64,000 bases of DNA. Source: Patescibacteria group bacterium. GTDB lineage: Bacteria > Patescibacteriota > Patescibacteriia > UBA1558 > UBA10009. The stretch spans positions 108,636 to 172,635 of the forward strand of contig JBAZSE010000003.1 in the NCBI GenBank assembly GCA_041662565.1. Direction: 5' to 3'. The notes beneath the pieces were generated by a model, which ran no database searches, had not been told where the DNA came from, and saw only the letters and a list, made by a program, of their open reading frames with translations. Of the stretch, positions 1,500-30,677 are shown in pieces (position 1 is the first letter of the stretch; each line of letters begins with the position of its first letter). The translations under genes were made by a program, and so were the position numbers.

Positions 1500-2606
1500 T
1501 CAACTATTTAAAATTGAAAGGGTTTCTGTGGCGCATTTTTCCCAAGAAAAATCTTGAACCCGACGCATACCTTTGGCAATTAAATCATCGCGCCAGACCT
1601 GATCTTCGTTGATTTTAATCATGCTTTTGGCAAAGGCCTCGACATCATGGGTATTATGCATCACGCCCGCATTACCGATAATTTCGGGTAATGAACCGGC
1701 ATTGCTGGCAATTACCGGTACTCCGCAAGCCATAGCTTCCAAGGCCGGCAAGCCAAATCCTTCATAAATTGAGGGAAACAAAAATGCCCTAGCACCAGAC
1801 ATTAAAACCGGCAACTGCTCTAAATCCAGCCAACCGATTTTTTTAATTTCATCACGATAAGGTGAAGCTTGAATTTCGGCATCAATATCCTGTTGTCCGG
1901 GCTCGGGAGAGCCGGCTAAAACCAAGTTAAAAGGCCGTTTTTGCTTTTCTCTAAAACAATTATAAATCCTAATCAAACCGACGATATTTTTCCTTAATGC
2001 CAAGCGACCGATAAAAACAAAATAAGGATAATGTATTTTTAACGTTTGCAGTAATTCGGCCACTGCTTCTTTAGGCGCCGGGCGCCAACGCTGATTGTTA
2101 ATGCCCAAGTGCACCACTTTAATCAAATCCGGCTTAAGACCGTAGTATTCCACTAATTCATTTTTAGTGAATTGAGAAACGGCAATAATTGTATCGGCCA
2201 TTTTAATCATGCGCCCGGCGCCTTGCTTAAGAGATTGCAGATCCCAGGCAGTATAAGTTTCGGGATATTTTTCATAACCGATATCGTGCCAGGTAATAAT
2301 ATTTTTATGTCCGCCGATAAAAGGAAAAGTATGCGATGGCACGAATAAAACATCCGGTTTGTGAGTAACCATTTCCCAAGTTAGGCGGCCTAGAGTCCAC
2401 AATTTTTTAAACGGCCACTCCAAAACTTTTTCCTTAAAATTAGACGATCGTGGAATTAATGCACCTGTTAATTTTTGCGGGGTATATAAAAGATATTGGT
2501 TTTTTTTATCCAATTTGAAAAACTGATCCAGCAAATGGTAAGCGTACCATTCTACTCCGCTTTTATGAGTTAAGTTTGCTCTGGAAACGTCGATGCCGAT
2601 AAGCAT
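1500..2606 (-). CDS. Glycosyltransferase family 4 (GT1 fold)
   Basis: Motif EGFGLPALEAMACGVPVIASNAGSLPEII is typical of retaining GT4 enzymes. 368 aa. Confidence 0.75.
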   Translation of the reverse strand: MLIGIDVSRANLTHKSGVEWYAYHLLDQFFKLDKKNQYLLYTPQKLTGALIPRSSNFKEKVLEWPFKKLWTLGRLTWEMVTHKPDVLFVPSHTFPFIGGHKNIITWHDIGYEKYPETYTAWDLQSLKQGAGRMIKMADTIIAVSQFTKNELVEYYGLKPDLIKVVHLGINNQRWRPAPKEAVAELLQTLKIHYPYFVFIGRLALRKNIVGLIRIYNCFREKQKRPFNLVLAGSPEPGQQDIDAEIQASPYRDEIKKIGWLDLEQLPVLMSGARAFLFPSIYEGFGLPALEAMACGVPVIASNAGSLPEIIGNAGVMHNTHDVEAFAKSMIKINEDQVWRDDLIAKGMRRVQDFSWEKCATETLSILNS

Positions 2607-2681
2607 AAATATGCAAATGACAATTCACAAGTGACAATCAAAAAACATGGGATCTTTTTTGTGAATTGTTTTTGTTGATTG

Positions 2682-3695
2682 TTACTTAGTAAATAAAATA
2701 CTGCGCTTATATGACTCTAAGTTATCCAAAGCAATCCCGGTACCCTTGGCCACGCAGAGCAAAGCATCATCAGCCACGTAGGCGGGAACGCCTGTGGCTT
2801 GCGAAAGCAAGTTGGCCATATTTCTTAAAAGAGAAGAGCCACCTGTTAAAACCATGCCTTTATCCATTACATCGGCCGAAAGTTCGGGCGGGGTTTTAAA
2901 AAGCACGGATTTAACGGCTGCAATAATACCTTGAAGTTCGTTTTGCAGGGCCTCGGTTACATCGTCGGAATTAACTTCAATCGTCCTGGGCAAACCGGAA
3001 ATCATATCCCGGCCCCTGATATTCATTTTTAATTTTTCTTCATCATCCAAATACATCGCGGAACCGATCTGGATTTTTATCTGTTCGGCCGTGCTTTCGC
3101 CAATAGCTAAACCGTATTTTTTTCGGATAAATTCACCAATCGCCGCATCAAACTTGGTGCCGCCGATTCTTATGGAAGTATTAGCCACAATGCCGCCTAA
3201 AGAAATAACGGCAATTTCGGAAGTACCGCCACCCATATCCACAATCATATGCCCGGAAGCCGAACCAATAGGGATATTAGCGCCAATGGCTGCAGCAATC
3301 GGTTCTTTAATGATATAGGCCGCTTTGGCTCCAGCCGCTACCGTAGCATCAATAACCGCTCTTTTTTCGGTGGAAGTTATGCCAGCCGGAACAGCAATCA
3401 TTACTTCGGGCCTAAATAGTTTAACTCCCCCAATGGCCTTGTTAATAAAATATCTTAACATGCTTTCGGTGGTTTTATAATCGGCAATCACGCCATCCCT
3501 TAACGGCCTTAAAGCAATTATAGTATCTGGGGTTCGGCCCAGCATTTCTTTAGCTTCTTCACCCACGGCTAAAACTTTTTTATCAATAACCGAAATAGCC
3601 ACAACCGAGGGTTCATTAATAATAATGCCCCTTTTGGGTATATGGACCAGGGTATAAGTAGTACCTAAATCAATGCCTATTTTCTTGGTAAACAT
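2682..3695 (-). CDS. mreB: MreB/Mbl-like actin homologue (second paralog)
   Basis: N-terminal IGIDLGTTYTLV phosphate-1 motif and DMGGGTSEIAVIS phosphate-2 motif. 337 aa. Paralog of the gene at 7573-8616. Confidence 0.8.
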   Translation of the reverse strand: MFTKKIGIDLGTTYTLVHIPKRGIIINEPSVVAISVIDKKVLAVGEEAKEMLGRTPDTIIALRPLRDGVIADYKTTESMLRYFINKAIGGVKLFRPEVMIAVPAGITSTEKRAVIDATVAAGAKAAYIIKEPIAAAIGANIPIGSASGHMIVDMGGGTSEIAVISLGGIVANTSIRIGGTKFDAAIGEFIRKKYGLAIGESTAEQIKIQIGSAMYLDDEEKLKMNIRGRDMISGLPRTIEVNSDDVTEALQNELQGIIAAVKSVLFKTPPELSADVMDKGMVLTGGSSLLRNMANLLSQATGVPAYVADDALLCVAKGTGIALDNLESYKRSILFTK

Positions 3696-3838
3696 AAGGT
3701 ATTAAGCCAATTTATCCTAACATAAAATTTCTGACCCCACAATACTAAAATTCCTTAAAAATAAGGGGTTTTACAGGCCATTAAACAAAAAAAACCGTCT
3801 TTTAGCGCTAAAAAGAGGGCCTCGAATCAAGTCAATTG

Positions 3839-7572: not shown

Positions 7573-8616
7573 TCAATCCGTAGCCGAAGGCAATAAAACT
7601 TCCTGCAGATTATCCATATCTTCCAAAATAATGCCCGTGCCTCTTACCACCGCGGTTAAAGGATCATCAACAATATGCACCGGCACTCGGGTTTCTTGAG
7701 CAATTAAGGCATCCAAACCTTTTAAATTAGCGCCACCGCCCGAAAGCAACATTCCCCTGGTATAAATATCAGCTACCAATTCCGGCGGGGTTTTTTCCAA
7801 AGTATCCCTAACTGCTTCTACAATCTGCCTTACCGATCTGATAATCGCCTCTCTGATCTGCAAACTGTTAACCGCCACTTCTTTAGGCAAACCGGAAATC
7901 AAATCACGACCCCGCATGACTGTTTCTTCTTTTTCGTTAGTAAAGCCGGAAACCGAACCGATCTTTATTTTAATTTCTTCAGCAGTTTTTTGCCCTAACA
8001 AAAGATTAAAATTCTCGCGGGCATACTGAATAATATTATCATCAAGCTCCTGGCCGGCAATGGTTAATGAATTAAAGGTCACCACACCGCCCAAAGAAAT
8101 AACCGCCACCTCGGTAGTGCCGCCACCCAGATCCACCATCATAAAACCACTGGGCTCTTGGATAGGAACTCGAGAGCCAATGGCAGCTGCTAAGGGCTGT
8201 TCCACTAAATAAACCTCCTTGGCTCCAGCAGATCTAGTTGCATCTTCCACGGCCTTTCTTTCCACTTCGGTAACGTTTAACGGTATGCCAATCACCACTC
8301 GCGGTCTGGGCGATAAGCTAAAATTTTCTTGATGGATTTTTTTTAAAAAATGACTGATCATTTTTTCGGTTATTTCAAAATCCGAAATAACGCCATTGGT
8401 TAAGGGCTTGGAAATTAAAATATGACCGGGAGTTTTACCCACCATGCGCTTGGCATCTTCGCCAATGGATATAATTTGGTTATTGCGGGTATTAATGGCT
8501 ACCACCGAGGGTTCATTAATAACAATACCCTTATCTTTAACGTAAACCAAAGTATTGGTGGTTCCTAAATCAATACCGATATCCTGCGAAAATTTTCCAA
8601 AAAATTTATTAAACAT
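7573..8616 (-). CDS. mreB: Rod shape-determining protein MreB
   Basis: [14 protein letters not shown] and MMVDLGGGTTEVAVISLGG actin-fold ATPase motifs. 347 aa. Confidence 0.9.
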   Translation of the reverse strand: MFNKFFGKFSQDIGIDLGTTNTLVYVKDKGIVINEPSVVAINTRNNQIISIGEDAKRMVGKTPGHILISKPLTNGVISDFEITEKMISHFLKKIHQENFSLSPRPRVVIGIPLNVTEVERKAVEDATRSAGAKEVYLVEQPLAAAIGSRVPIQEPSGFMMVDLGGGTTEVAVISLGGVVTFNSLTIAGQELDDNIIQYARENFNLLLGQKTAEEIKIKIGSVSGFTNEKEETVMRGRDLISGLPKEVAVNSLQIREAIIRSVRQIVEAVRDTLEKTPPELVADIYTRGMLLSGGGANLKGLDALIAQETRVPVHIVDDPLTAVVRGTGIILEDMDNLQEVLLPSATD

Positions 8617-16384: not shown

Positions 16385-17662
16385 TTACTTCTTTTTCATC
16401 ATTTCCTTTAAATTGATGACATTGTTGGGCAAATCTTGCTTTTTAACTTCAGGTCTTACTGACAATGGTTTAACGAGGCCAACTGGGGTTTGATTTTTTG
16501 GCCGAGGCGCAAGAGAAACAAAACTTTTTTCTGGCATCAAAGAGTTTAGCTCACTTGGTTCTTTATCTTTGTATTTTAAATATAAAGCTACTAAAACCGC
16601 AATTGCCGAAAATATCGCTACTAAAAGCCATAGCCAAAAATTATTCGGGCTAAAAAAACTTTTGCCTTGGCCCGAAACCTTTTCCACCATATCATCCAAT
16701 TTAGCTAAAGGTTGATCGTTAATCTTATCCGCGGCCGCTTCGCTGGCAGTTAGATTATTAAGCTGATTCTGTAAATCCTGCAAACTTTGCTCGCTGCCGG
16801 GATTTTGCCCTGCGGCCGCGGCCTCATTATCTGTAGAATTTCCTTGATTGGGTTGGTTAGAATTAGCAACCGGCGGCTGAAAAATATTCCTTTCTTTTTC
16901 TTGAATGGTTTTTGAAGAATCCAAGGGATAAAAATCCTGCGGGTCATTGGTGCCATCGCCATCGGTATCTTTACGCAACGGATCTGTTCCCTTGGCTTTT
17001 TCCTGCTCATCAGACCAGCCGTCATTATCATCATCAACATCGGCATTATTGCCGATCCCATCATTATCACTATCCAACCACTCTTTGGAATCTAAAGGAA
17101 AAACATCCGCCTTATCGTTATAACTGTCACCGTCGGTATCGGCTTTTAAAGGATTGGTGCCCAGCTTGGCTTCATCAACATCGCTAACACCATCATTGTC
17201 ATCATCGGCGTCCAAACGGTCAACAGTATTATCGCCATCAGTATCTTTATCGGGTACGATTAATTTTGTTTGATTGGAATCATTGGCCGCATTCTGGTCT
17301 GCAGGTTCCGCGCCACCTATTTTGGCCTGAATGTTAAACGAATCATCCGGTACGGTAAAATCCACAAAAACATCAGCATAGCCCGTTGGCCTAACCGAAA
17401 TGGACCTGGAATTGCCGATTAAAGTATTGCCTCTTAAAAAAGAAACATAAGCAGTCATGTCTTTATTGCCCACGTTCCTAACTCGGGCGTAAATGCGCAC
17501 ACTTTGTCCGCTGATTAAAACAGTGTTAGAAAATTCCAAATCTTCAGCCGAAAGAGACAAATCATAATCGTACTTGGCGGCTTGAATTTTACTTGTTGCA
17601 AAAAAACCCAAAGTTAAAAAAATAAAACCAGCCAGCAGAATAAAATATTTTTTATTGAACAT
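16385..17662 (-). CDS. Secreted, C-terminally membrane-anchored protein with thrombospondin type-3 Ca-binding repeats
   Basis: Signal peptide. An N-terminal beta-rich domain. A run of DxDxDGxxDxxD repeats (DTDGDNTVDRLDADDDNDGVSDVDE...DTDGDGTNDPQD). A Q/N-rich linker. A single C-terminal TM (FWLWLLVAIFSAIAVLVALYL). Confidence 0.7.
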   Translation of the reverse strand: MFNKKYFILLAGFIFLTLGFFATSKIQAAKYDYDLSLSAEDLEFSNTVLISGQSVRIYARVRNVGNKDMTAYVSFLRGNTLIGNSRSISVRPTGYADVFVDFTVPDDSFNIQAKIGGAEPADQNAANDSNQTKLIVPDKDTDGDNTVDRLDADDDNDGVSDVDEAKLGTNPLKADTDGDSYNDKADVFPLDSKEWLDSDNDGIGNNADVDDDNDGWSDEQEKAKGTDPLRKDTDGDGTNDPQDFYPLDSSKTIQEKERNIFQPPVANSNQPNQGNSTDNEAAAAGQNPGSEQSLQDLQNQLNNLTASEAAADKINDQPLAKLDDMVEKVSGQGKSFFSPNNFWLWLLVAIFSAIAVLVALYLKYKDKEPSELNSLMPEKSFVSLAPRPKNQTPVGLVKPLSVRPEVKKQDLPNNVINLKEMMKKK

Positions 17663-18779: not shown

Positions 18780-20411
18780 TTATTCTTTTGAATACATTTC
18801 ATCTTTCTTTTCTTTCAAAAAAGCGATCCATTCTTCAATAACTTCCAAAAATATCTTTAATGGCGCTTCAATGATGAAATCCAAGATAAAAACAAAAACG
18901 TTGATTTTGGAAAACTTTTCCGAAAGCCAATGACCGGCTTTTAAAAAAGGCAAAGCAAAAAGGTTGACCAAAAAAACCAAAGGATTTTCTTTTTTATCAA
19001 TGACGGTTAAATCCTTAACTTTCATTCTCATTTTAATGCCAAAAAAGCTGACTAATGATAAAAACAACAAAAAGATCAGCTTACTAAAAATATTAAATTT
19101 CAATAAATTCAACAAATACAACAAAACGCTAAATGACAAATAAAATAAAGCCAAATAAAGAGCGTAAAATACAATTACAAAAAATTTACTTCGCTTGATT
19201 ACCCCGCCAATGGTAGTTTTAACCGATGTTGCCAAGGGCTGTTCCACCACTTCCTGAGCCAAAGCCACTACCCGATTGGTATTTTTTTTGGAAGGAATCC
19301 TGATAAATATTCCCAGCAAAAAAATCAAAAAAGGCGGGAACAGGGCGTTAATGGCCAAAGGCAAATACATAACTTTATGGGCAATGTAATAATCATAAGG
19401 AAATTCCAAGATCAAAGCCAAAACCATTTTAGTTAAAAACAGATAAATTACCACCCGCACAATGCTGCGCCTAAGCTTTGTCCTGGTGTTTTTATACATT
19501 TTATCGCAAGCGGAACGAATGGCCAGCTCCAGTTGAGCGGGATTTTTAAACAACCGATCCGCGTCATCAGGATTTTCGGAAATAATATCCCGCAGGACAT
19601 AAAAAACAAAAGCGGATTTTTTAAAGAAACGATAAAGCTTTTCGGCCAAATAATATTTTCTTCTTTTTTCAATTTCCTTCTTTAAATTGTTGATTTTTTT
19701 GGCTACCGGCAATAAATCAACGGGCTGAACGTTTTTCCAATCGGGATAAAAATAACGCAACAACTTATAATCCATCATTACTTCGTCGGATTTTACCAAG
19801 GCCCGATAAATTGCCAGATAAATATACAAATCCTTTTCCAAATCGCTTGAGCTAGGATCATTAATTGCCACTACCGGGCGCATCACCTTAAACATGTACT
19901 CGACCAATGCCTGATTGGCCAGCGGTGGCATTAAGCATTCTTCAATTTCGCAAGAACAAAGCCCGAGTAGCCATTTAAACAATTTAGCCCCGTTATCACT
20001 GCTTTTTTTGGAACCGCTTAAATTATACAGGGTTAAATATTTGGTAATGATCTTATCAACTTCTTCGGTTTTGCTAAAAGGAATAAGATTGTTTTCCAAA
20101 TAACCGGCACGGATCAGTTCTTTAACCAGGCCAAGCGATAAATCTTCAGTCGTTACCTTAATCATCAAGCGCCTTTGCAAAATCCTAAAGATCGCCGCCT
20201 TTCTCATTAAGTGATCCTCTTTATAATCAATGGCGTTGCGGATTTTCTCGTAAATAAAAGCAACCCTAGAGACAAAACTGTCTACTTGGATTCTGGAGAT
20301 TTCTTCTGTTGAGGAGTAAAAAACTTTCGGATCGGACCGTTTAATTTGCTCAATAAACCTTCTGGCTGATGAAGTTATGGGCATAATATTATGTTCTACA
20401 TTATACAACAA
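18780..20411 (-). CDS. Hypothetical polytopic membrane protein (soluble N-terminal half, multi-TM C-terminal half)
   Basis: 543-aa ORF with several hydrophobic helices in the C-terminal 250 aa. No recognised motif. Confidence 0.45.
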   Translation of the reverse strand: MLYNVEHNIMPITSSARRFIEQIKRSDPKVFYSSTEEISRIQVDSFVSRVAFIYEKIRNAIDYKEDHLMRKAAIFRILQRRLMIKVTTEDLSLGLVKELIRAGYLENNLIPFSKTEEVDKIITKYLTLYNLSGSKKSSDNGAKLFKWLLGLCSCEIEECLMPPLANQALVEYMFKVMRPVVAINDPSSSDLEKDLYIYLAIYRALVKSDEVMMDYKLLRYFYPDWKNVQPVDLLPVAKKINNLKKEIEKRRKYYLAEKLYRFFKKSAFVFYVLRDIISENPDDADRLFKNPAQLELAIRSACDKMYKNTRTKLRRSIVRVVIYLFLTKMVLALILEFPYDYYIAHKVMYLPLAINALFPPFLIFLLGIFIRIPSKKNTNRVVALAQEVVEQPLATSVKTTIGGVIKRSKFFVIVFYALYLALFYLSFSVLLYLLNLLKFNIFSKLIFLLFLSLVSFFGIKMRMKVKDLTVIDKKENPLVFLVNLFALPFLKAGHWLSEKFSKINVFVFILDFIIEAPLKIFLEVIEEWIAFLKEKKDEMYSKE

Positions 20412-20435: not shown

Positions 20436-22703
20436 CTATCCAGATTTATTGTCAAAAAGTTCCGACCAACTTTTCCAACCTTTATCTTTATACGTTCTGT
20501 TAGGATGAGTGGGCCAGTTTAGTTCAGGATTAGCTTTTAAATATGCTTTATAGGAAAGCACGTTTTTAAAACTCATTTTTTTTACCTCTATTTCAAATTG
20601 TGAAAAACTCAAAAAAATTTTACTTTCTCTTTTAAATAATTTCGGCCAACCTTGCCAACCTTTGTCATGATAATAAATTTCTGGTTGAGACGGCCAACTA
20701 CTTTTTGAATTTTCTTTTCTATACCTATAATAATCCTTTTCGCTATCCAATTTCCTACCATCTGGAAAAGTAGTAGCACCCACTTCTAATTGAAATTCAT
20801 CATAATTAAGTAATTTTTCTCTACCAAATAATTTATACCAATCTTCCCAGCCCTTATTTTTATAAAATTGATTTGGATTCGAAGGCCAATTCAGCTCAGG
20901 ATGGTTAATTAAATATTCAGCATATTCTTCCAAACTTTTTAAACCAGCATCTCTGACTGCGATTTCAAAATCCGAATAGATTAAAAATTTTTTCCTTTCT
21001 TTATTAAAAAGCTTTAACCAGCTTTCCCAACCTTTGAATTTATAATGTAAGTCAGGCCTTACTGGCCAGTTTAACTCAGAGTGATTTTTAACGTAATTTT
21101 TGTAATCATCTACTGTTAATAAACCAGCAAATCTTACAGATTGCACGAAGTCATTAAATGTCAATTCCTTTTTTAGATCACTATCTATTCTTCCTTTTTC
21201 AATAAATTGCGATAAAGACCAGACCTCTTGAGGATCCACAATTACTCGCAAATTTTCTATCTGAATATCTGGATTAGAAACGTAACCATGACCAGCGCCC
21301 TTCTTCTCAAAATCTGACCTAACTTCTTTTGGCTCAAGCTCACTAGCCCTCGCGATTTCCGAAAAAGTTATACCCGGCTGACTAGCTTTTTCGTCCACAA
21401 AATCAACAATGTAAGACCATTTTTCTTGGTTATTGGGGTCAAGGCGCAAAACCCGTCCAGCCCGCTGTTCCGCAACCACCCTGGAAAGAGTTGGTTGTAA
21501 ATTTAAGGCCACGCTGGCTTTTGGTTCGTCAAAACCTTCTACCAAAATACGCACATTGCATAAAACCTTTATTTTACCTGATCTAAAATCTTCAATTATC
21601 TCTTTTCTTCTCTCCGGAGAAGTATTTGCTAATAAAACAGCCGAGGAAATGTTTTGCGCCATAAACATTTGTTCCATTTCCTTAGCATGATCTGTTCCAC
21701 CGCAATAAACAATGGCGCTTTGCCCTTCAAACATTTGTTGATACAGCTGGACGGCGGATAAATTACGAGCATGATTATTAACGACCTGCTTCAAAGATGC
21801 TTCGTCGTAATCATCCCCTTTTATTTTGACTTCGGAAAGATCGGTTGAGGTATAAGCCAAAATCGCCTTAAAGCGATTTAGCAGACCTTCTTCCACAGCT
21901 TCTTTAATAGACATCTCATGGATTTTATTGCTCAAAACCTCGCTCACGCCTTTTTCATAGGAATATTGAGGCGTAGCCGTAAAACCCAATTTAACGCAAT
22001 CAAAAGAAGCTAAAGCGTTTTGAGTTTTTTCGCCAATGGCTTTATGGGCTTCATCTAAAATAAGCAATTTAAAATCTTCGGGCTTAAAAGTGCCGTCAGC
22101 CACTCTTTGAACTAATGATTGATAAGTGGTAATTGTAACCTGCTTAGCTAAATCTTTATTTTCTTGAAAATAACTGCCATGTTCCAAATCCGTAAACTCA
22201 TCCAGTTTTGATCCTGTTTGGCCAACTAAAACTTTGGACGGCACAACAATCAAAGTTTTTACACCCATTGCATCTACCACCTGGGAAAATAAAACGGTTT
22301 TACCTACGCCGGTGGGCAATTTAACATAGCCCTCTTTTTGGCCTTCTTCTAAAGAATCCCTAATATCCTCAAAAACCGTAAATTGCCTATCGCGTAAAAC
22401 CCGGTTATCTTCTTGGCTTTTATGTTTTTCAATGTAAACATCTAGGTTATTTAAAACCCCTATCCACTCTTGCATATCATCCAATTCTTCATTGTTAATT
22501 TCAGCAGAGCCCCTATTATATCTTAATAGCTTTAAATAAATCTGATAACGCTCCGGAAATCTGGTTTTAATTTCTTCAATTGGTAACTTAAAAAGATCCT
22601 CTTGTTCCAAAGAGGGCTGCAATTTTTCACCTAAAAGTTCGCTGGAATCAGATACTTGCTGTTCAAGCTGTTCGGGCTGTTTTGGTTGAAACCATTTTTC
22701 CAT
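20436..22703 (-). CDS. SF2 DEAD/DEAH-box helicase (type III restriction Res-subunit-like core) with four C-terminal ~60-aa tandem repeats
   Basis: Motif I LPTGVGKTVL. Motif II ILDEAHKAIG. Motif VI QRAGRVLR. The C-terminus carries four repeats of the form NWPxxPxxxYKxKGWxxWxxLF. Confidence 0.75.
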   Translation of the reverse strand: MEKWFQPKQPEQLEQQVSDSSELLGEKLQPSLEQEDLFKLPIEEIKTRFPERYQIYLKLLRYNRGSAEINNEELDDMQEWIGVLNNLDVYIEKHKSQEDNRVLRDRQFTVFEDIRDSLEEGQKEGYVKLPTGVGKTVLFSQVVDAMGVKTLIVVPSKVLVGQTGSKLDEFTDLEHGSYFQENKDLAKQVTITTYQSLVQRVADGTFKPEDFKLLILDEAHKAIGEKTQNALASFDCVKLGFTATPQYSYEKGVSEVLSNKIHEMSIKEAVEEGLLNRFKAILAYTSTDLSEVKIKGDDYDEASLKQVVNNHARNLSAVQLYQQMFEGQSAIVYCGGTDHAKEMEQMFMAQNISSAVLLANTSPERRKEIIEDFRSGKIKVLCNVRILVEGFDEPKASVALNLQPTLSRVVAEQRAGRVLRLDPNNQEKWSYIVDFVDEKASQPGITFSEIARASELEPKEVRSDFEKKGAGHGYVSNPDIQIENLRVIVDPQEVWSLSQFIEKGRIDSDLKKELTFNDFVQSVRFAGLLTVDDYKNYVKNHSELNWPVRPDLHYKFKGWESWLKLFNKERKKFLIYSDFEIAVRDAGLKSLEEYAEYLINHPELNWPSNPNQFYKNKGWEDWYKLFGREKLLNYDEFQLEVGATTFPDGRKLDSEKDYYRYRKENSKSSWPSQPEIYYHDKGWQGWPKLFKRESKIFLSFSQFEIEVKKMSFKNVLSYKAYLKANPELNWPTHPNRTYKDKGWKSWSELFDNKSG

Positions 22704-27385: not shown

Positions 27386-28474
27386 ATGCCCAATCAAAAT
27401 TTTAAAGCAATATACTTTACTGATTATAAAGAAATAAACCCTAACGGGAAAAGTTTTAATCTTGCCTTTGGAGATAGACATAAAGATTTGTATAAAAAAA
27501 TAGCGAATTTAGCCAGTAATGAAATAAGAAATTTACTGGGCACAAATTCTTTTATTGAATTAGAACAACGGGCTAAAAATGAAGGCCTACAAATCAATAC
27601 CTATTGTCTTTGGTATCTATTTAAAAATTTATACAAAGAAAATGTGGTGATTTTGCCAAAAGCTAAGAAAGAAAAAAATATTGATCAGTTTATCAATCAG
27701 GTTATTCAAGGTGATTGTCTGGAAGTAATGAAAGAAATTCCTTCAAAATCAATAGATATGATTTTATGCGATCTTCCTTATGGCACAACTCAAAATAATT
27801 GGGATAGCATTATCCCCTTGGATCAGCTTTGGAACCATTATGAACGCATAATAAAAGACAGAGGGGTAATCGTGTTAACAGCTCAAGGACTTTTCACCGC
27901 GAGTTTAATGATTTCTAATCCGAAAATTTTCAAATATAAAATTACTTGGGTTAAATCTAAGCCAACTAATTTTCTTAATGCTAAAAAACAACCTTTAAGA
28001 AAACATGAAGATGTTTGTATTTTTTATAAAAACCAACCTTTTTATAACCCGCAAATGACTCTTGGCGAACCTTATAATAAAGGTTTTCGCAAAGATCAAT
28101 TTACCGGAAGTTATGGTGAATTTAAAACCGTTGAGGTTAAAAGCAACGGCGAGAGGTATCCTACCGATGTTATTTATTTTAAAACCGCTGAAAGTGAAGG
28201 GCAAGTTTATCACCCGACCCAAAAACCAGTAGAATTAGGTAGATATTTAATTAAGACATTTACTGAAAAGGGGGATATTGTTTTAGACAATACTTGCGGT
28301 AGTGGTAGCTTCCTTGTTTCAGCAGTTTTAGAGGGTAGAAAATTTATTGGGATAGAAAAAAATGAAGAAGTATACCTTCATAAAAAACAAAAGGTGGATT
28401 ATATTGAGATCTGCAGAGAAAGAATTAAAGAGGCAGAGCGAGTTTATAAAGCTTCTTCCAGTAAACTATTTTAA
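27386..28474 (+). CDS. Site-specific DNA methyltransferase (N6-adenine or N4-cytosine), beta class
   Basis: Catalytic motif IV D-L-P-Y (ILCDLPYGTT) precedes SAM motif I (DNTCGSGSFLVSAVLEGRKFIGIE). This order defines beta-class amino-MTases. The region is AT-rich. A TATAAT lies 6 nt before the ATG. Confidence 0.8.
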   Translation: MPNQNFKAIYFTDYKEINPNGKSFNLAFGDRHKDLYKKIANLASNEIRNLLGTNSFIELEQRAKNEGLQINTYCLWYLFKNLYKENVVILPKAKKEKNIDQFINQVIQGDCLEVMKEIPSKSIDMILCDLPYGTTQNNWDSIIPLDQLWNHYERIIKDRGVIVLTAQGLFTASLMISNPKIFKYKITWVKSKPTNFLNAKKQPLRKHEDVCIFYKNQPFYNPQMTLGEPYNKGFRKDQFTGSYGEFKTVEVKSNGERYPTDVIYFKTAESEGQVYHPTQKPVELGRYLIKTFTEKGDIVLDNTCGSGSFLVSAVLEGRKFIGIEKNEEVYLHKKQKVDYIEICRERIKEAERVYKASSSKLF

Positions 28475-29409
28475 ATACCGCTATAGAGCTCCTCTTTAAG
28501 AATATCTTTAGCTCTTGCTAATTCAGCGTCTGTTAAGTGACCTTTTTCTTTGAGCCATTTTAGAAGATGAAAATATTGATTGGGGTGTAAAATTGGTTTA
28601 ACAATTTTCTCTAAACCAGTTTCATTTTTAATGAATTCCAAATGTTCTTGATTAAGAACCCCTCTACCTATAAGATCGTAGGTAATTCTTATAGCGTCAA
28701 CAAATGTTAGGTTTAAATCGCCTTGTTTTACTCTGTCTTTTTCAACATCGGGCATTTCAATACTTAGTAAATCTTCAATTCCCGATAAACCATTAAGATT
28801 GCGGTTATAAAGCTCAATTTCTTGACCTCTGTAGGTAAACCAAGTTCTGCCCTGTTCAGTTAAAGAACCGCGGGGCAAATAAACTCCTTCTCTGGCAACT
28901 CTTTCTTTAGAGACCCAACCGCAAACGTATAGAATCCATTTCCTCTGTCTTCTGGTGCCCGGCAAAGAACTTTTTTTCTTGCCGGGATTTTCTAAATGAG
29001 TTAATAAGTAAATATCGGCATCAAGCTGATCGTCGTTGATTTGACGAGCGAAAAAATTATGCTTTGCTTCTCTGGGAATACCATCGTCACTTTCATAAAG
29101 TTCTTTGAATGGGAGATTGCCACCACGACACTTAACATCAACCTTAATTCCAGAAGGCAATAAAATATCATAACCTAGCGGATGATTTTCTGGATTAATT
29201 TCCGGCATGCCTAGTTTATTTCTGACAACTATTTCTGCTAAAGCGCCAAAGCCCTGTTCCTCTATGTTTCCACGTTCAGCGCCAGTTCTATTTTGATTTT
29301 GCTCAATATATTCTGATGCTTTTTGGCGTAAGGCAAAACCTTCTTCACCTATTAATTTTATTACGATTGGTGTCGGATTCTTGTATTGATACATATCATT
29401 ATTAAACAA
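28471..29409 (-). CDS. Putative type II restriction endonuclease (PD-(D/E)xK fold), convergent with the MTase
   Basis: GYDILLPSGIKVDVKC matches the D-x(n)-(D/E)xK catalytic signature. Adjacent to and convergent with the DNA MTase. 312 aa. Confidence 0.5.
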   Translation of the reverse strand: MFNNDMYQYKNPTPIVIKLIGEEGFALRQKASEYIEQNQNRTGAERGNIEEQGFGALAEIVVRNKLGMPEINPENHPLGYDILLPSGIKVDVKCRGGNLPFKELYESDDGIPREAKHNFFARQINDDQLDADIYLLTHLENPGKKKSSLPGTRRQRKWILYVCGWVSKERVAREGVYLPRGSLTEQGRTWFTYRGQEIELYNRNLNGLSGIEDLLSIEMPDVEKDRVKQGDLNLTFVDAIRITYDLIGRGVLNQEHLEFIKNETGLEKIVKPILHPNQYFHLLKWLKEKGHLTDAELARAKDILKEELYSGI

Positions 29410-29419
29410 TTAAATAAAC

Positions 29420-30265
29420 CTATTTATTGCCATTGAGCTTGCCGTGCACTTTTTGAATCGCCTCACGGGCTTTGGTCGCTTTATCAGCCTTCTCTTTCTG
29501 TATAATTTTCTCGTCGAGAATCTGCTCAATACCTATTTTGATCGTCTCGAAATATTGTAGGCACTCATCCTCGGTAAGCTCATGTATTCCTTTGCTCAAG
29601 ATTGCATACAGCACTTTATTTTCTACGAGAAAATCAGGAAGGTTACTTTTAAGCATGCCTATTTTTTCGTCCATGCTTACTAGTTTATAATTATCCTCAT
29701 TAAATCCCTCTTCTTTTAACGAAAGCTCATGAGCCTCTTCAATAAGATTTTCAAAAACGCGACGAAGGTATACAAACGAACCAATCCCCACTCCGTGAGC
29801 AGCGACTCCTACGCCTCTTGTTAATTCTTTATATTGTTCTTCACCAAGGATCTTCCTATATTTTCCAACTTGTGGAATCTGAAAGTCTGCGACAGAAGGA
29901 AATTGTCCAACTTTTTGAAATTTATTTGTACCAGCAGCCGTAAAATAATAAGATCTATAACAATGACTATGATTATGCGCGCAATGCCAATTAAATTCTT
30001 CAAGCTTATTTTCTATTTGCGAAAGCCATTGATCAAATACCCACCTTGAGGAAGAATTAGATTTAAACACACTCTCTTTTTTACACCAGATACAATAAGC
30101 GTCAATCGTACCAGAAAAAGTTGTTAACTCATAAATTTTTTCTTTAACTTCCTTGATAAGTAAATTATAGGAACGATAAAGAGGCATTTCCAAATGAAAT
30201 ATTTTTGGTAATTCTAGGTATGGGTCATTTTGGATATTAATACTTTGTTCTTCTGAATTTTCCAT
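29420..30265 (-). CDS. Hypothetical Zn-binding protein in the R-M islet
   Basis: CxxC...NWHCAHNHSHC Cys/His cluster. Low-GC island context next to the tRNA. No confident family. Confidence 0.4.
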   Translation of the reverse strand: MENSEEQSINIQNDPYLELPKIFHLEMPLYRSYNLLIKEVKEKIYELTTFSGTIDAYCIWCKKESVFKSNSSSRWVFDQWLSQIENKLEEFNWHCAHNHSHCYRSYYFTAAGTNKFQKVGQFPSVADFQIPQVGKYRKILGEEQYKELTRGVGVAAHGVGIGSFVYLRRVFENLIEEAHELSLKEEGFNEDNYKLVSMDEKIGMLKSNLPDFLVENKVLYAILSKGIHELTEDECLQYFETIKIGIEQILDEKIIQKEKADKATKAREAIQKVHGKLNGNK

Positions 30266-30482: not shown

Positions 30483-30556
30483 TTTGGGAAGATTTTTGAT
30501 GGCTCGGGGACAGGGAGTCGAACCCCGATTGACAGGACCAGAACCTGCTGTCCTAC
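30483..30556 (-). tRNA. tRNA-Gln (anticodon CTG)
   Basis: Manual cloverleaf. Acceptor stem TCGGGGA/TCCCCGA with the U1:A72 pair and G73 discriminator typical of tRNA-Gln. D-arm GTC-TAATGGTAG-GAC. Anticodon stem GCAGG/CCTGT with loop TTCTGGT (U33, CTG, purine 37). T-arm CGGGG-TTCGACT-CCCTG. CCA is encoded. Upstream promoter: -35 TTGACG 30601-30606, 17-nt spacer, -10 TATTAT 30578-30583. Confidence 0.9.
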
Positions 30557-30677
30557 CATTAGACGATCCCCGAATACAATGTTTATTGATTAGTATAATA
30601 TTACAAAAAGACCTTATCGTCAAGATAATTTCTTGTTTTTTGAATTTAATGTTATAATATATCAATCATCAACATCT

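Follow-up and report, generated by a model that had tools for sequence, protein, structure and literature searches.

RadD (YejH), XPB/Rad25 and the HsdR motor share a two-lobe superfamily 2 (SF2) motor with ResIII-type motifs. The repeat catalogued in Pfam as PF14882 (INT_rpt, "Integrase repeat unit", formerly PHINT_rpt) owes its name to an array that is fused to the GmtZ integrase. In the literature it is tabulated with repeat families that lack a structure (PMC8078820) and listed among integrase hidden Markov models (HMMs) (PMC11502894), and the preprint on the gamma-mobile-trio (GMT) islands gives GmtZ an integrase domain, with no mention of repeats (bioRxiv 10.1101/2023.03.28.534373). Literature searches with 'integrase repeat' phrases and with the motif strings of the repeats described below found nothing else of relevance. 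The two elements come together in an architecture, an SF2 helicase with an INT_rpt array, that is recurrent and already catalogued. The example considered here comes from a Patescibacteria group bacterium and lies on a 64,000-nucleotide stretch (the window) of contig JBAZSE010000003.1, assembly GCA_041662565.1. The gene is a minus-strand open reading frame (ORF) at 20436..22703 that begins with ATG. Its 755-aa product is an SF2 helicase carrying an array of INT_rpt-type repeats at the C-terminus, and the best sequence and fold relatives of this helicase are the three motors named above. The window helicase is a further example of the architecture, which is common in public data. It is probably a stand-alone chromosomal SF2 ATPase, joined by a flexible linker to four diverged INT_rpt copies that would tether the motor to DNA.

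The protein is 100% identical to NCBI MFA6304782.1/MFA6460205.1, 'MAG: DEAD/DEAH box helicase [Patescibacteria group bacterium]', MAG denoting a metagenome-assembled genome, and the identical Patescibacteria MAG protein sits on an 809-kb contig.

The repeats and their Pfam family

The C-terminal part of the protein is built from four tandem repeats of about 60 residues. The pattern [NS]WP..P...Y..KGW..W..LF matches exactly four times after the helicase core, at aa 545, 605, 669 and 729, and these are the four strings that were quoted in a first-pass annotation of the window. The array itself is about 245 aa in length, rather than the roughly 300 given there, as aa 441–507 form a linker. Repeat 1 (aa 508–566; 21006..21182, minus strand, as are all other parts of the gene) carries the motif NWPVRPDLHYKFKGWESWLKLF, repeat 2 (aa 567–626; 20826..21005) the motif NWPSNPNQFYKNKGWEDWYKLF, and repeat 3 (aa 627–690; 20634..20825) the motif SWPSQPEIYYHDKGWQGWPKLF, with 6 extra residues inserted between its helices 1 and 2. 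Repeat 4 (aa 691–750; 20454..20633), with the motif NWPTHPNRTYKDKGWKSWSELF, is followed by DNKSG and the stop codon (20436–20453). Fifteen columns are invariant across the four units (alignment A1), including W39, P40, P43, Y47, K50, G51, W52, W55, L58 and F59, and the unit consensus is F-L-x-F-S-D-F-E-I-E-V-R-x-A-G-L-K-S-x-x-D-Y-x-x-Y-L-K-N-H-x-E-L-N-W-P-S-x-P-N-x-x-Y-K-D-K-G-W-E-S-W-x-K-L-F. Units 2 and 4 are 49% identical over 59 aa (BLASTP E 3e-21). No DNA period of about 180 nt was detected in the array by Tandem Repeats Finder, so that the repeats are neither an assembly artefact nor the product of a recent copying of DNA; their duplication is old, and it has been preserved at the protein level. 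The repeat was found in no other ORF of the window.

The repeats seemed novel because direct scans gave nothing meaningful. Searches of the tail and of single units against Pfam-A, NCBIfam and PHROGs returned only chance-level matches, the best being CheR_N, ScsC_N and DUF1780, and hmmscan against Pfam-A and NCBIfam gave nothing significant on aa 508–755 even at E <= 10. The PF14882 HMM, which has a gathering threshold of 26.5 bits, likewise reports nothing at this permissive limit, whether given the full protein, its 241-aa tail or the units one by one, a silence that counts against an INT_rpt assignment. Together with searches of the Protein Data Bank (PDB), which gave no sequence or fold match to the array, these scans speak for a domain that is truly new and has no catalogued relatives, and the first-pass annotation had likewise left the repeats without a named domain.

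That idea became scarcely credible once the repeats were compared with their relatives. A homologue search with the tail led to a set of stand-alone repeat proteins (P0001–P0008), most of which match PF14882, five of them above the gathering score. When A1 was compared by hhalign with a second alignment, A2, containing 21 units from proteins that pass the PF14882 threshold, the two matched over the full unit with a probability of 98.4% (E 6.2e-15, 58 columns). In the reciprocal direction, an HMM made from the four window units alone matches P0001–P0004, P0006 and P0007 with domain E-values of 1e-6 to 1e-13. Moreover, positions ~6–32 of the PF14882 profile map onto P..P...Y..GW..W..LG, which is the KGW motif of the first-pass annotation. 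On the strength of the profile–profile match, the retrieval of INT_rpt proteins by the window-unit HMM and this coincidence of the KGW segment with the core of the Pfam profile, the window repeats are, as judged from sequence, diverged INT_rpt (PF14882) units that score too low for the Pfam HMM to list them. Direct PF14882 matches in relatives point the same way. Orthologues P0013, P0017, P0019, P0025, P0028 and others (38–43% identity, 98–99% coverage) have them at the same C-terminal position; precomputed ones occur in 15 of the 120 closest helicase homologues, whose arrays align in register with the window array; and 29 of the 42 multi-repeat proteins sampled in the census described below match PF14882 directly (best E 1.6e-113). 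The proposal of a new domain is refuted by these results, and of the 'known Pfam domain with established function' against which the first-pass annotation had set its novelty claim, the known domain was found and an established function was not.

INT_rpt units and the window units are alike in length (about 55–60 aa), in tandem arrangement and in fusion to DNA enzymes. Both contain a helix (F-x-x-A/L-R/K-x-x-V), G-L/I-K-S, a second helix (E-W/Y-x-x-Y) and then P-x-x-P-x-x-x-Y-K-x-K-G-W-x-x-W-x-D-W/F-L-G. The elements follow the same order in the A2 consensus, F-L-S-F-E-E-A-R-x-F-V-R-x-L-x-L-K-S-x-x-E-W-x-x-Y-x-K-S-x-x-K-P-x-N-I-P-x-x-P-x-x-x-Y-K-x-K-G-W-x-G-x-G-D-W-L-G, and the window array displays the INT_rpt signature, P-x-x-P-x3-Y-(K)-x-(K)-G-W-x-x-W-x-x-(W/F/L)-(L/F)-(G) after two short helices, in tandem units of about 55–60 aa. 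The units differ in that the window has N-W-P, K-L-F and E-Y where canonical INT_rpt has N-I-P, D-W-L-G and E-W. The position of the array also differs, being C-terminal on the window helicase, whereas in the GmtZ homologue P0149 a 17-unit array starts at residue 3 and is followed by a non-repeat part of about 790 aa.

The motor and the ligand of the array

The complete SF2 DEAH-type helicase core reported by the first-pass annotation is well founded, since the motif strings quoted there are present and the Pfam families ResIII (aa 103–246, 89.5 bits) and Helicase_C (aa 325–421, 56.9 bits) both exceed their gathering scores. The core (aa 103–440; 21384..22397) comprises two RecA-like lobes. 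It contains motif I, or Walker A, GVGKT (aa 132–136; 22296..22310; string KLPTGVGKTVLF), motif II, DEAH (aa 217–220; 22044..22055; string LLILDEAHKAIGE), motif III, FTATP (aa 241–245; 21969..21983), which was confirmed in the translation, and motif VI, QRAGRVLR (aa 413–420; 21444..21467). In an alignment with 65 homologues these four motifs are invariant, with G134, K135 and T136 of motif I, D217, E218 and H220 of motif II and Q413, R414, R417 and R420 of motif VI unchanged throughout. Both Pfam families and the motifs GxGKT, DExH, TATP and QRxGRxxR, which together characterise the ResIII/Helicase_C group of SF2, are accordingly all found. The core is preceded by an acidic (isoelectric point, pI, 4.6) helical region (aa 1–102; 22398..22703) that has no Pfam match; it is conserved in full-length orthologues, with E2, K8, Q16, R52, Y53, Y56, L84, N85, D88 and H94 near-invariant. 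The linker that follows the core (aa 441–507; 21183..21383) is disordered at aa 466–476, where the predicted local distance difference test (pLDDT) score drops below 50, and includes a conserved strand and a long helix (aa 485–510) that runs into the array. A nuclease domain is absent from the protein in the Pfam scan.

The solved structures closest to the motor core are those of double-stranded DNA (dsDNA) translocases and repair helicases, namely HsdR, CSB, SauUSI, RadD, INO80 and XPB. Within the ResIII/Helicase_C group the motor most resembles such enzymes (HsdR, XPB, RadD and SNF2-like proteins), and it is best interpreted as a dsDNA-translocase-like motor, with a putative DNA-dependent ATPase, translocase or unwinding activity. 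The protein stays far under the equivalog cut-offs for two of these relatives, scoring 98.7 bits with the RadD equivalog NF053632 (cut-off 720) and 87.6 bits with the XPB equivalog NF045503 (cut-off 610), and it is set apart from RadD, XPB and HsdR by its family-specific N-terminal helical region and its repeat tail. An RNA helicase, with repeats that bind structured RNA in, for example, ribosome biogenesis or RNA decay, would account for the Pfam DEAD (PF00270) match to the core (E 1e-10) and for source annotations such as 'DEAD/DEAH box helicase' or 'superfamily II DNA or RNA helicase', and a basic aromatic array could suit RNA as well as DNA. Such a role is nevertheless very unlikely. ResIII is the strongest Pfam match, ranking above DEAD; motif II is DEAH and motif III TATP, where DEAD-box RNA helicases have D-E-A-D, S-A-T and DEAD/Helicase_C as their best Pfam matches; and the other partners of the repeat are DNA nucleases and integrases.

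An AlphaFold2 model of the array (aa 505–755, from a 28-row alignment) has a mean pLDDT of 92.4 and a predicted template modelling (pTM) score of 0.61. Each modelled unit begins with a pair of 10-residue helices, and two further, very short ones form in its aromatic and proline-rich segment. The full-length model (pLDDT 89.9) shows the N-terminal helical region, the two RecA-like lobes, the disordered linker segment and the array in succession, and on the evidence of these predictions the array fold is real. A PDB sequence search with a 72-unit profile gave a best E of 0.12, a chance match to myeloid-derived growth factor.

The same 72-unit profile HMM was used for an exhaustive search of 1.84 billion cluster representatives, which puts the superfamily at 7,884 representatives at E <= 1e-3 and 1,926 at E <= 1e-30. 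A Pfam scan was then made of 42 multi-repeat matches that have large non-repeat regions. Apart from INT_rpt itself, the families present were Helicase_C (24 of the 42 proteins), ResIII (17), DEAD (10), the Mrr_cat_2 restriction endonuclease (9), Integrase_2 (4) and the SNF2-type families SWI2_SNF2 and SNF2-rel_dom (3 and 2, respectively), with single-protein matches to unrelated families such as ankyrin repeats, methyltransferase and SRP19. The 17-unit protein P0149 clusters with the Pseudomonas "VPA1269 family / gamma-mobile-trio integrase GmtZ", and in P0008 INT_rpt is fused to GIY-YIG. A single phage record among 50,697 contains the repeat, namely LR745208.1, a 485-kb uncultured phage, in which a 592-aa ORF (positions 2014–3792 of the extracted locus L005) has a Cys-rich HNH-like N-terminus (VDRIDSDGAYTIDNIQWVHKVVNQMK) followed by five INT_rpt units. 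In the BFVD database the array finds its closest structural counterparts in SF2 helicases of the giant viruses Klosneuvirus, Bodo saltans virus and Marseillevirus, although for the Klosneuvirus (A0A1V0SLK7) and Bodo saltans virus (A0A2H4UVX6) proteins the likeness in motor and array is structural only (Foldseek E 1e-4 to 1e-2). SF2 helicases of other lineages with INT_rpt-like arrays, such as metagenomic proteins annotated 'superfamily II DNA or RNA helicase', follow the same logic of a ResIII/Helicase_C motor plus a tandem array. They differ in motor subfamily and in array position, some having the array at the N-terminus and some adding an Mrr nuclease, with 5 to 17 units.

It is these partners that suggest a ligand, as the unrelated catalytic domains most often fused to the repeat act on DNA. 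Charge is the second reason for favouring a DNA-binding array: the array has a pI of 9.08 and a net charge of +6, the remainder of the protein a pI of 4.6–5.3, and the conserved K/R columns are occupied in 60–79% of the 72 units. Conserved K/R residues fall at unit columns 14, 18, 39, 57 and 71 of a further unit alignment, A4. The proposal of the first-pass annotation that the repeats are a nucleic-acid-binding module is the best-supported interpretation of the sequence data, given the basic array and a sample of fusion partners that are mainly DNA enzymes. From these observations we infer that the ligand is DNA, not RNA or protein, and that the array serves as a tether. The basic array would bind DNA with an additive and largely sequence-independent affinity, the avidity being set by the number of units, and through this contact the acidic motor, driven by ATP, would be tethered or targeted to its substrate DNA, much as accessory DNA-binding arrays improve loading or processivity in other enzymes that act on DNA. 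The (HhH)2 (helix-hairpin-helix) repeats of Methanopyrus topoisomerase V form a tandem non-specific DNA-binding array of this kind on a DNA enzyme. The likeness is one of functional analogy only, between small helical modules in tandem, in variable copy number, with a presumed role in DNA tethering or processivity.

Several observations weigh against a DNA tether. The array matched no known DNA-binding fold in the structure comparison, and its net charge of +6 over 241 aa is only moderate. The most conserved positions of the unit are aromatic or proline residues that are probably structural. DNA binding by the array is deduced from fusion partners and charge only; the literature and PDB searches found no published function, experiment or solved structure for any INT_rpt member; and no shared neighbours were found among four orthologue loci, nor between these and the window gene, that would hint at a pathway. 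Some of these points would sit comfortably with a protein–protein scaffold that recruits the helicase to a partner, which might be SSB, RNA polymerase or a factor of the replisome or of repair. Tandem repeats rich in aromatic residues frequently serve to bind proteins or ligands, the strongest conservation falls on W, Y, F and P and not on basic residues, and many proteins of the superfamily are almost nothing but repeats. Such a scaffold is unlikely all the same, for the sampled fusion partners are mainly DNA-processing enzymes of unrelated families, and across CPR (candidate phyla radiation) bacteria, Pseudomonas, phages and giant viruses a shared substrate is more economical than a shared protein partner. 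Moreover, the array is basic on an acidic protein, and no conserved neighbour gene presents itself as the candidate partner.

The helicase family and its tails

Amongst 8,000 scored candidates, 357 are homologous to the window helicase at E < 1e-10. The named homologues are all CPR (Paceibacterota, Kerfeldbacteria, Magasanikbacteria, Levybacteria and others) or simply 'bacterium', and the closest loci on genome contigs are mostly from CPR MAGs; more distant relatives that share only the core are found in Myxococcota, Planctomycetota and other groups. Some of the closest homologues (40–45% identity, some full length) are also found on short contigs of Third Party Annotation (TPA) MAGs titled 'uncultured Gammaproteobacteria' (L006, L008, L010, L012 and L015), a label that is probably the result of mis-binning or mislabelling. 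That the helicase has been kept across many reduced CPR genomes suggests a role in a housekeeping DNA transaction.

At least two INT_rpt-like units follow the motor in 64 of the 120 closest homologues, the mode being 4 and the maximum 11. The window units resemble each other (BLOSUM62 local scores 107–174) more than they do any orthologue unit (at most 146), and a unit-by-unit comparison with orthologues gave no diagonal, so that positional orthology of single repeats was not found. These two results indicate that arrays expand, contract or homogenise within lineages. From their sequences the units look interchangeable, and this interchangeability, combined with the variable unit number, fits additive, generic binding.

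About 50 of the 120 closest homologues have, instead of the INT_rpt array, 5–9 copies of another tandem repeat of about 70 aa, with the consensus AP(E/D)GW.T...L......T......EKYR..HPEWFK.Y......EHYSPELV..I. These proteins include P0023, P0029, P0033, P0047, P0089, P0096 and P0115. No Pfam tail domain was found at E <= 1e-3 in ten examples scanned, two short matches being sub-threshold, and it may be this array, rather than the KGW array, that represents an uncatalogued repeat. A few homologues have helix-turn-helix (HTH) or sigma-70 region 4 tail domains instead, as seen in precomputed Pfam matches, and the presence of HTH-type domains in homologous tails is a further reason for thinking that the array binds DNA. 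With such different tails on related motors, the C-terminal tail is best regarded as a swappable module.

A third tail variant occurs in P0018 and P0020, whose repeats of about 55–65 aa still begin like the INT_rpt unit, its first half being retained as W.Y..L...V...GIKS..(D/E)Y. They have WP....L...P.F....W(D)DFL in place of P..P...YK.KGW and are detected only weakly by the unit HMM.

Genomic surroundings and significance

The helicase gene is one of a closely packed series on the minus strand. A gap of 10 bp separates it from an aldehyde dehydrogenase upstream, beyond which come a thiamine pyrophosphate (TPP) enzyme and an Nramp protein; downstream are an unannotated 543-aa ORF, a PfkB kinase, a thrombospondin type 3 (TSP3)-repeat protein and RecJ. 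The 543-aa ORF (18780–20411, minus strand) is separated from the helicase by 24 bp and has no Pfam match at E <= 1e-5 or PADLOC match at E <= 1e-3, and long hydrophobic stretches in its C-terminal half suggest a membrane protein. The 425-aa product of 16385–17662 (minus strand), between the PfkB kinase and RecJ, contains bacterial TSP3 (thrombospondin type 3-like, calcium-binding) repeats. At the locus of orthologue P0012 (L001 1–5989, Logan SRR27197495), an ORF of more than 2,077 aa with a faint HATPase_c_3 match ends 12 bp upstream of the helicase, and it has no counterpart beside the window gene.

The surroundings bear on whether the protein could be an anti-phage defence or restriction motor, PbeA-like or of the type I- or type IV-restriction kind, whose repeats sense foreign or modified DNA. 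PADLOC gives partial matches to PbeA (E 3e-28) and to a type IV methyl-directed restriction enzyme (E 2e-19), Mrr-type nucleases are among the fusion partners of INT_rpt arrays, and a type II methyltransferase lies 4.7 kb away. A defence function is highly improbable nonetheless. The PADLOC matches are confined to the generic helicase core, the protein contains no nuclease domain, its neighbours are those listed above, the four orthologue loci lack defence partners as well as shared neighbours, and wide retention of the gene in small CPR genomes suggests housekeeping. The full-length match, nuclease or partner domains and adjacent partner genes that characterise the defence helicases PbeA, SauUSI-like type IV enzymes and HsdR are not seen for the window protein. 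A defence-island or prophage setting, considered in the wake of the first-pass annotation, was rejected, as the neighbours are housekeeping or metabolic genes without conserved synteny; the single phage record and the core-only PADLOC matches agree with this.

The methyltransferase in question, a type II N6/N4 DNA methyltransferase (27386–28474, plus strand), converges on two minus-strand ORFs (28471–29409 and 29420–30265) that have no Pfam or PADLOC match and adjoin a tRNA-Gln(CTG) gene (30500–30573, minus strand). The segment 27386–30573 could be a small restriction-modification or integrated islet. Elsewhere in the window, a full-length bacterial RNase P class A RNA (184 bits) lies at 1070–1465 on the minus strand. 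GC skew is negative in all 2-kb bins of the window (cumulative -3.86), and the larger ORFs between 10 and 34 kb are mostly on the minus strand; the window therefore lies inside one replichore, with its genes co-oriented.

For annotation, the outcome is a correction: the tail consists of diverged INT_rpt (PF14882) repeats and not of a new domain, and the gene can be labelled as an XPB/RadD/HsdR-like SF2 helicase of a CPR family. INT_rpt is a large repeat family, structurally and functionally uncharacterised, which in the sample examined occurs on helicases, Mrr nucleases, the GmtZ integrases of mobile GMT islands, homing-type endonucleases and giant-virus helicases. With a confident AlphaFold model that has no neighbour in the PDB, it is a reasonable target for a first structure and for a DNA-binding test. 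What remains of particular value is that a CPR helicase family exchanges INT_rpt with other unannotated repeat arrays. It is conceivable, if quite unlikely, that the array, which this CPR-wide helicase family exchanges for at least two other uncharacterised repeat arrays, is a modular DNA-recognition device tunable by copy number, perhaps even one that reads sequence or structure. Were this so, the family would be a genome-maintenance motor peculiar to its lineage and directed to its targets by interchangeable repeat cassettes.

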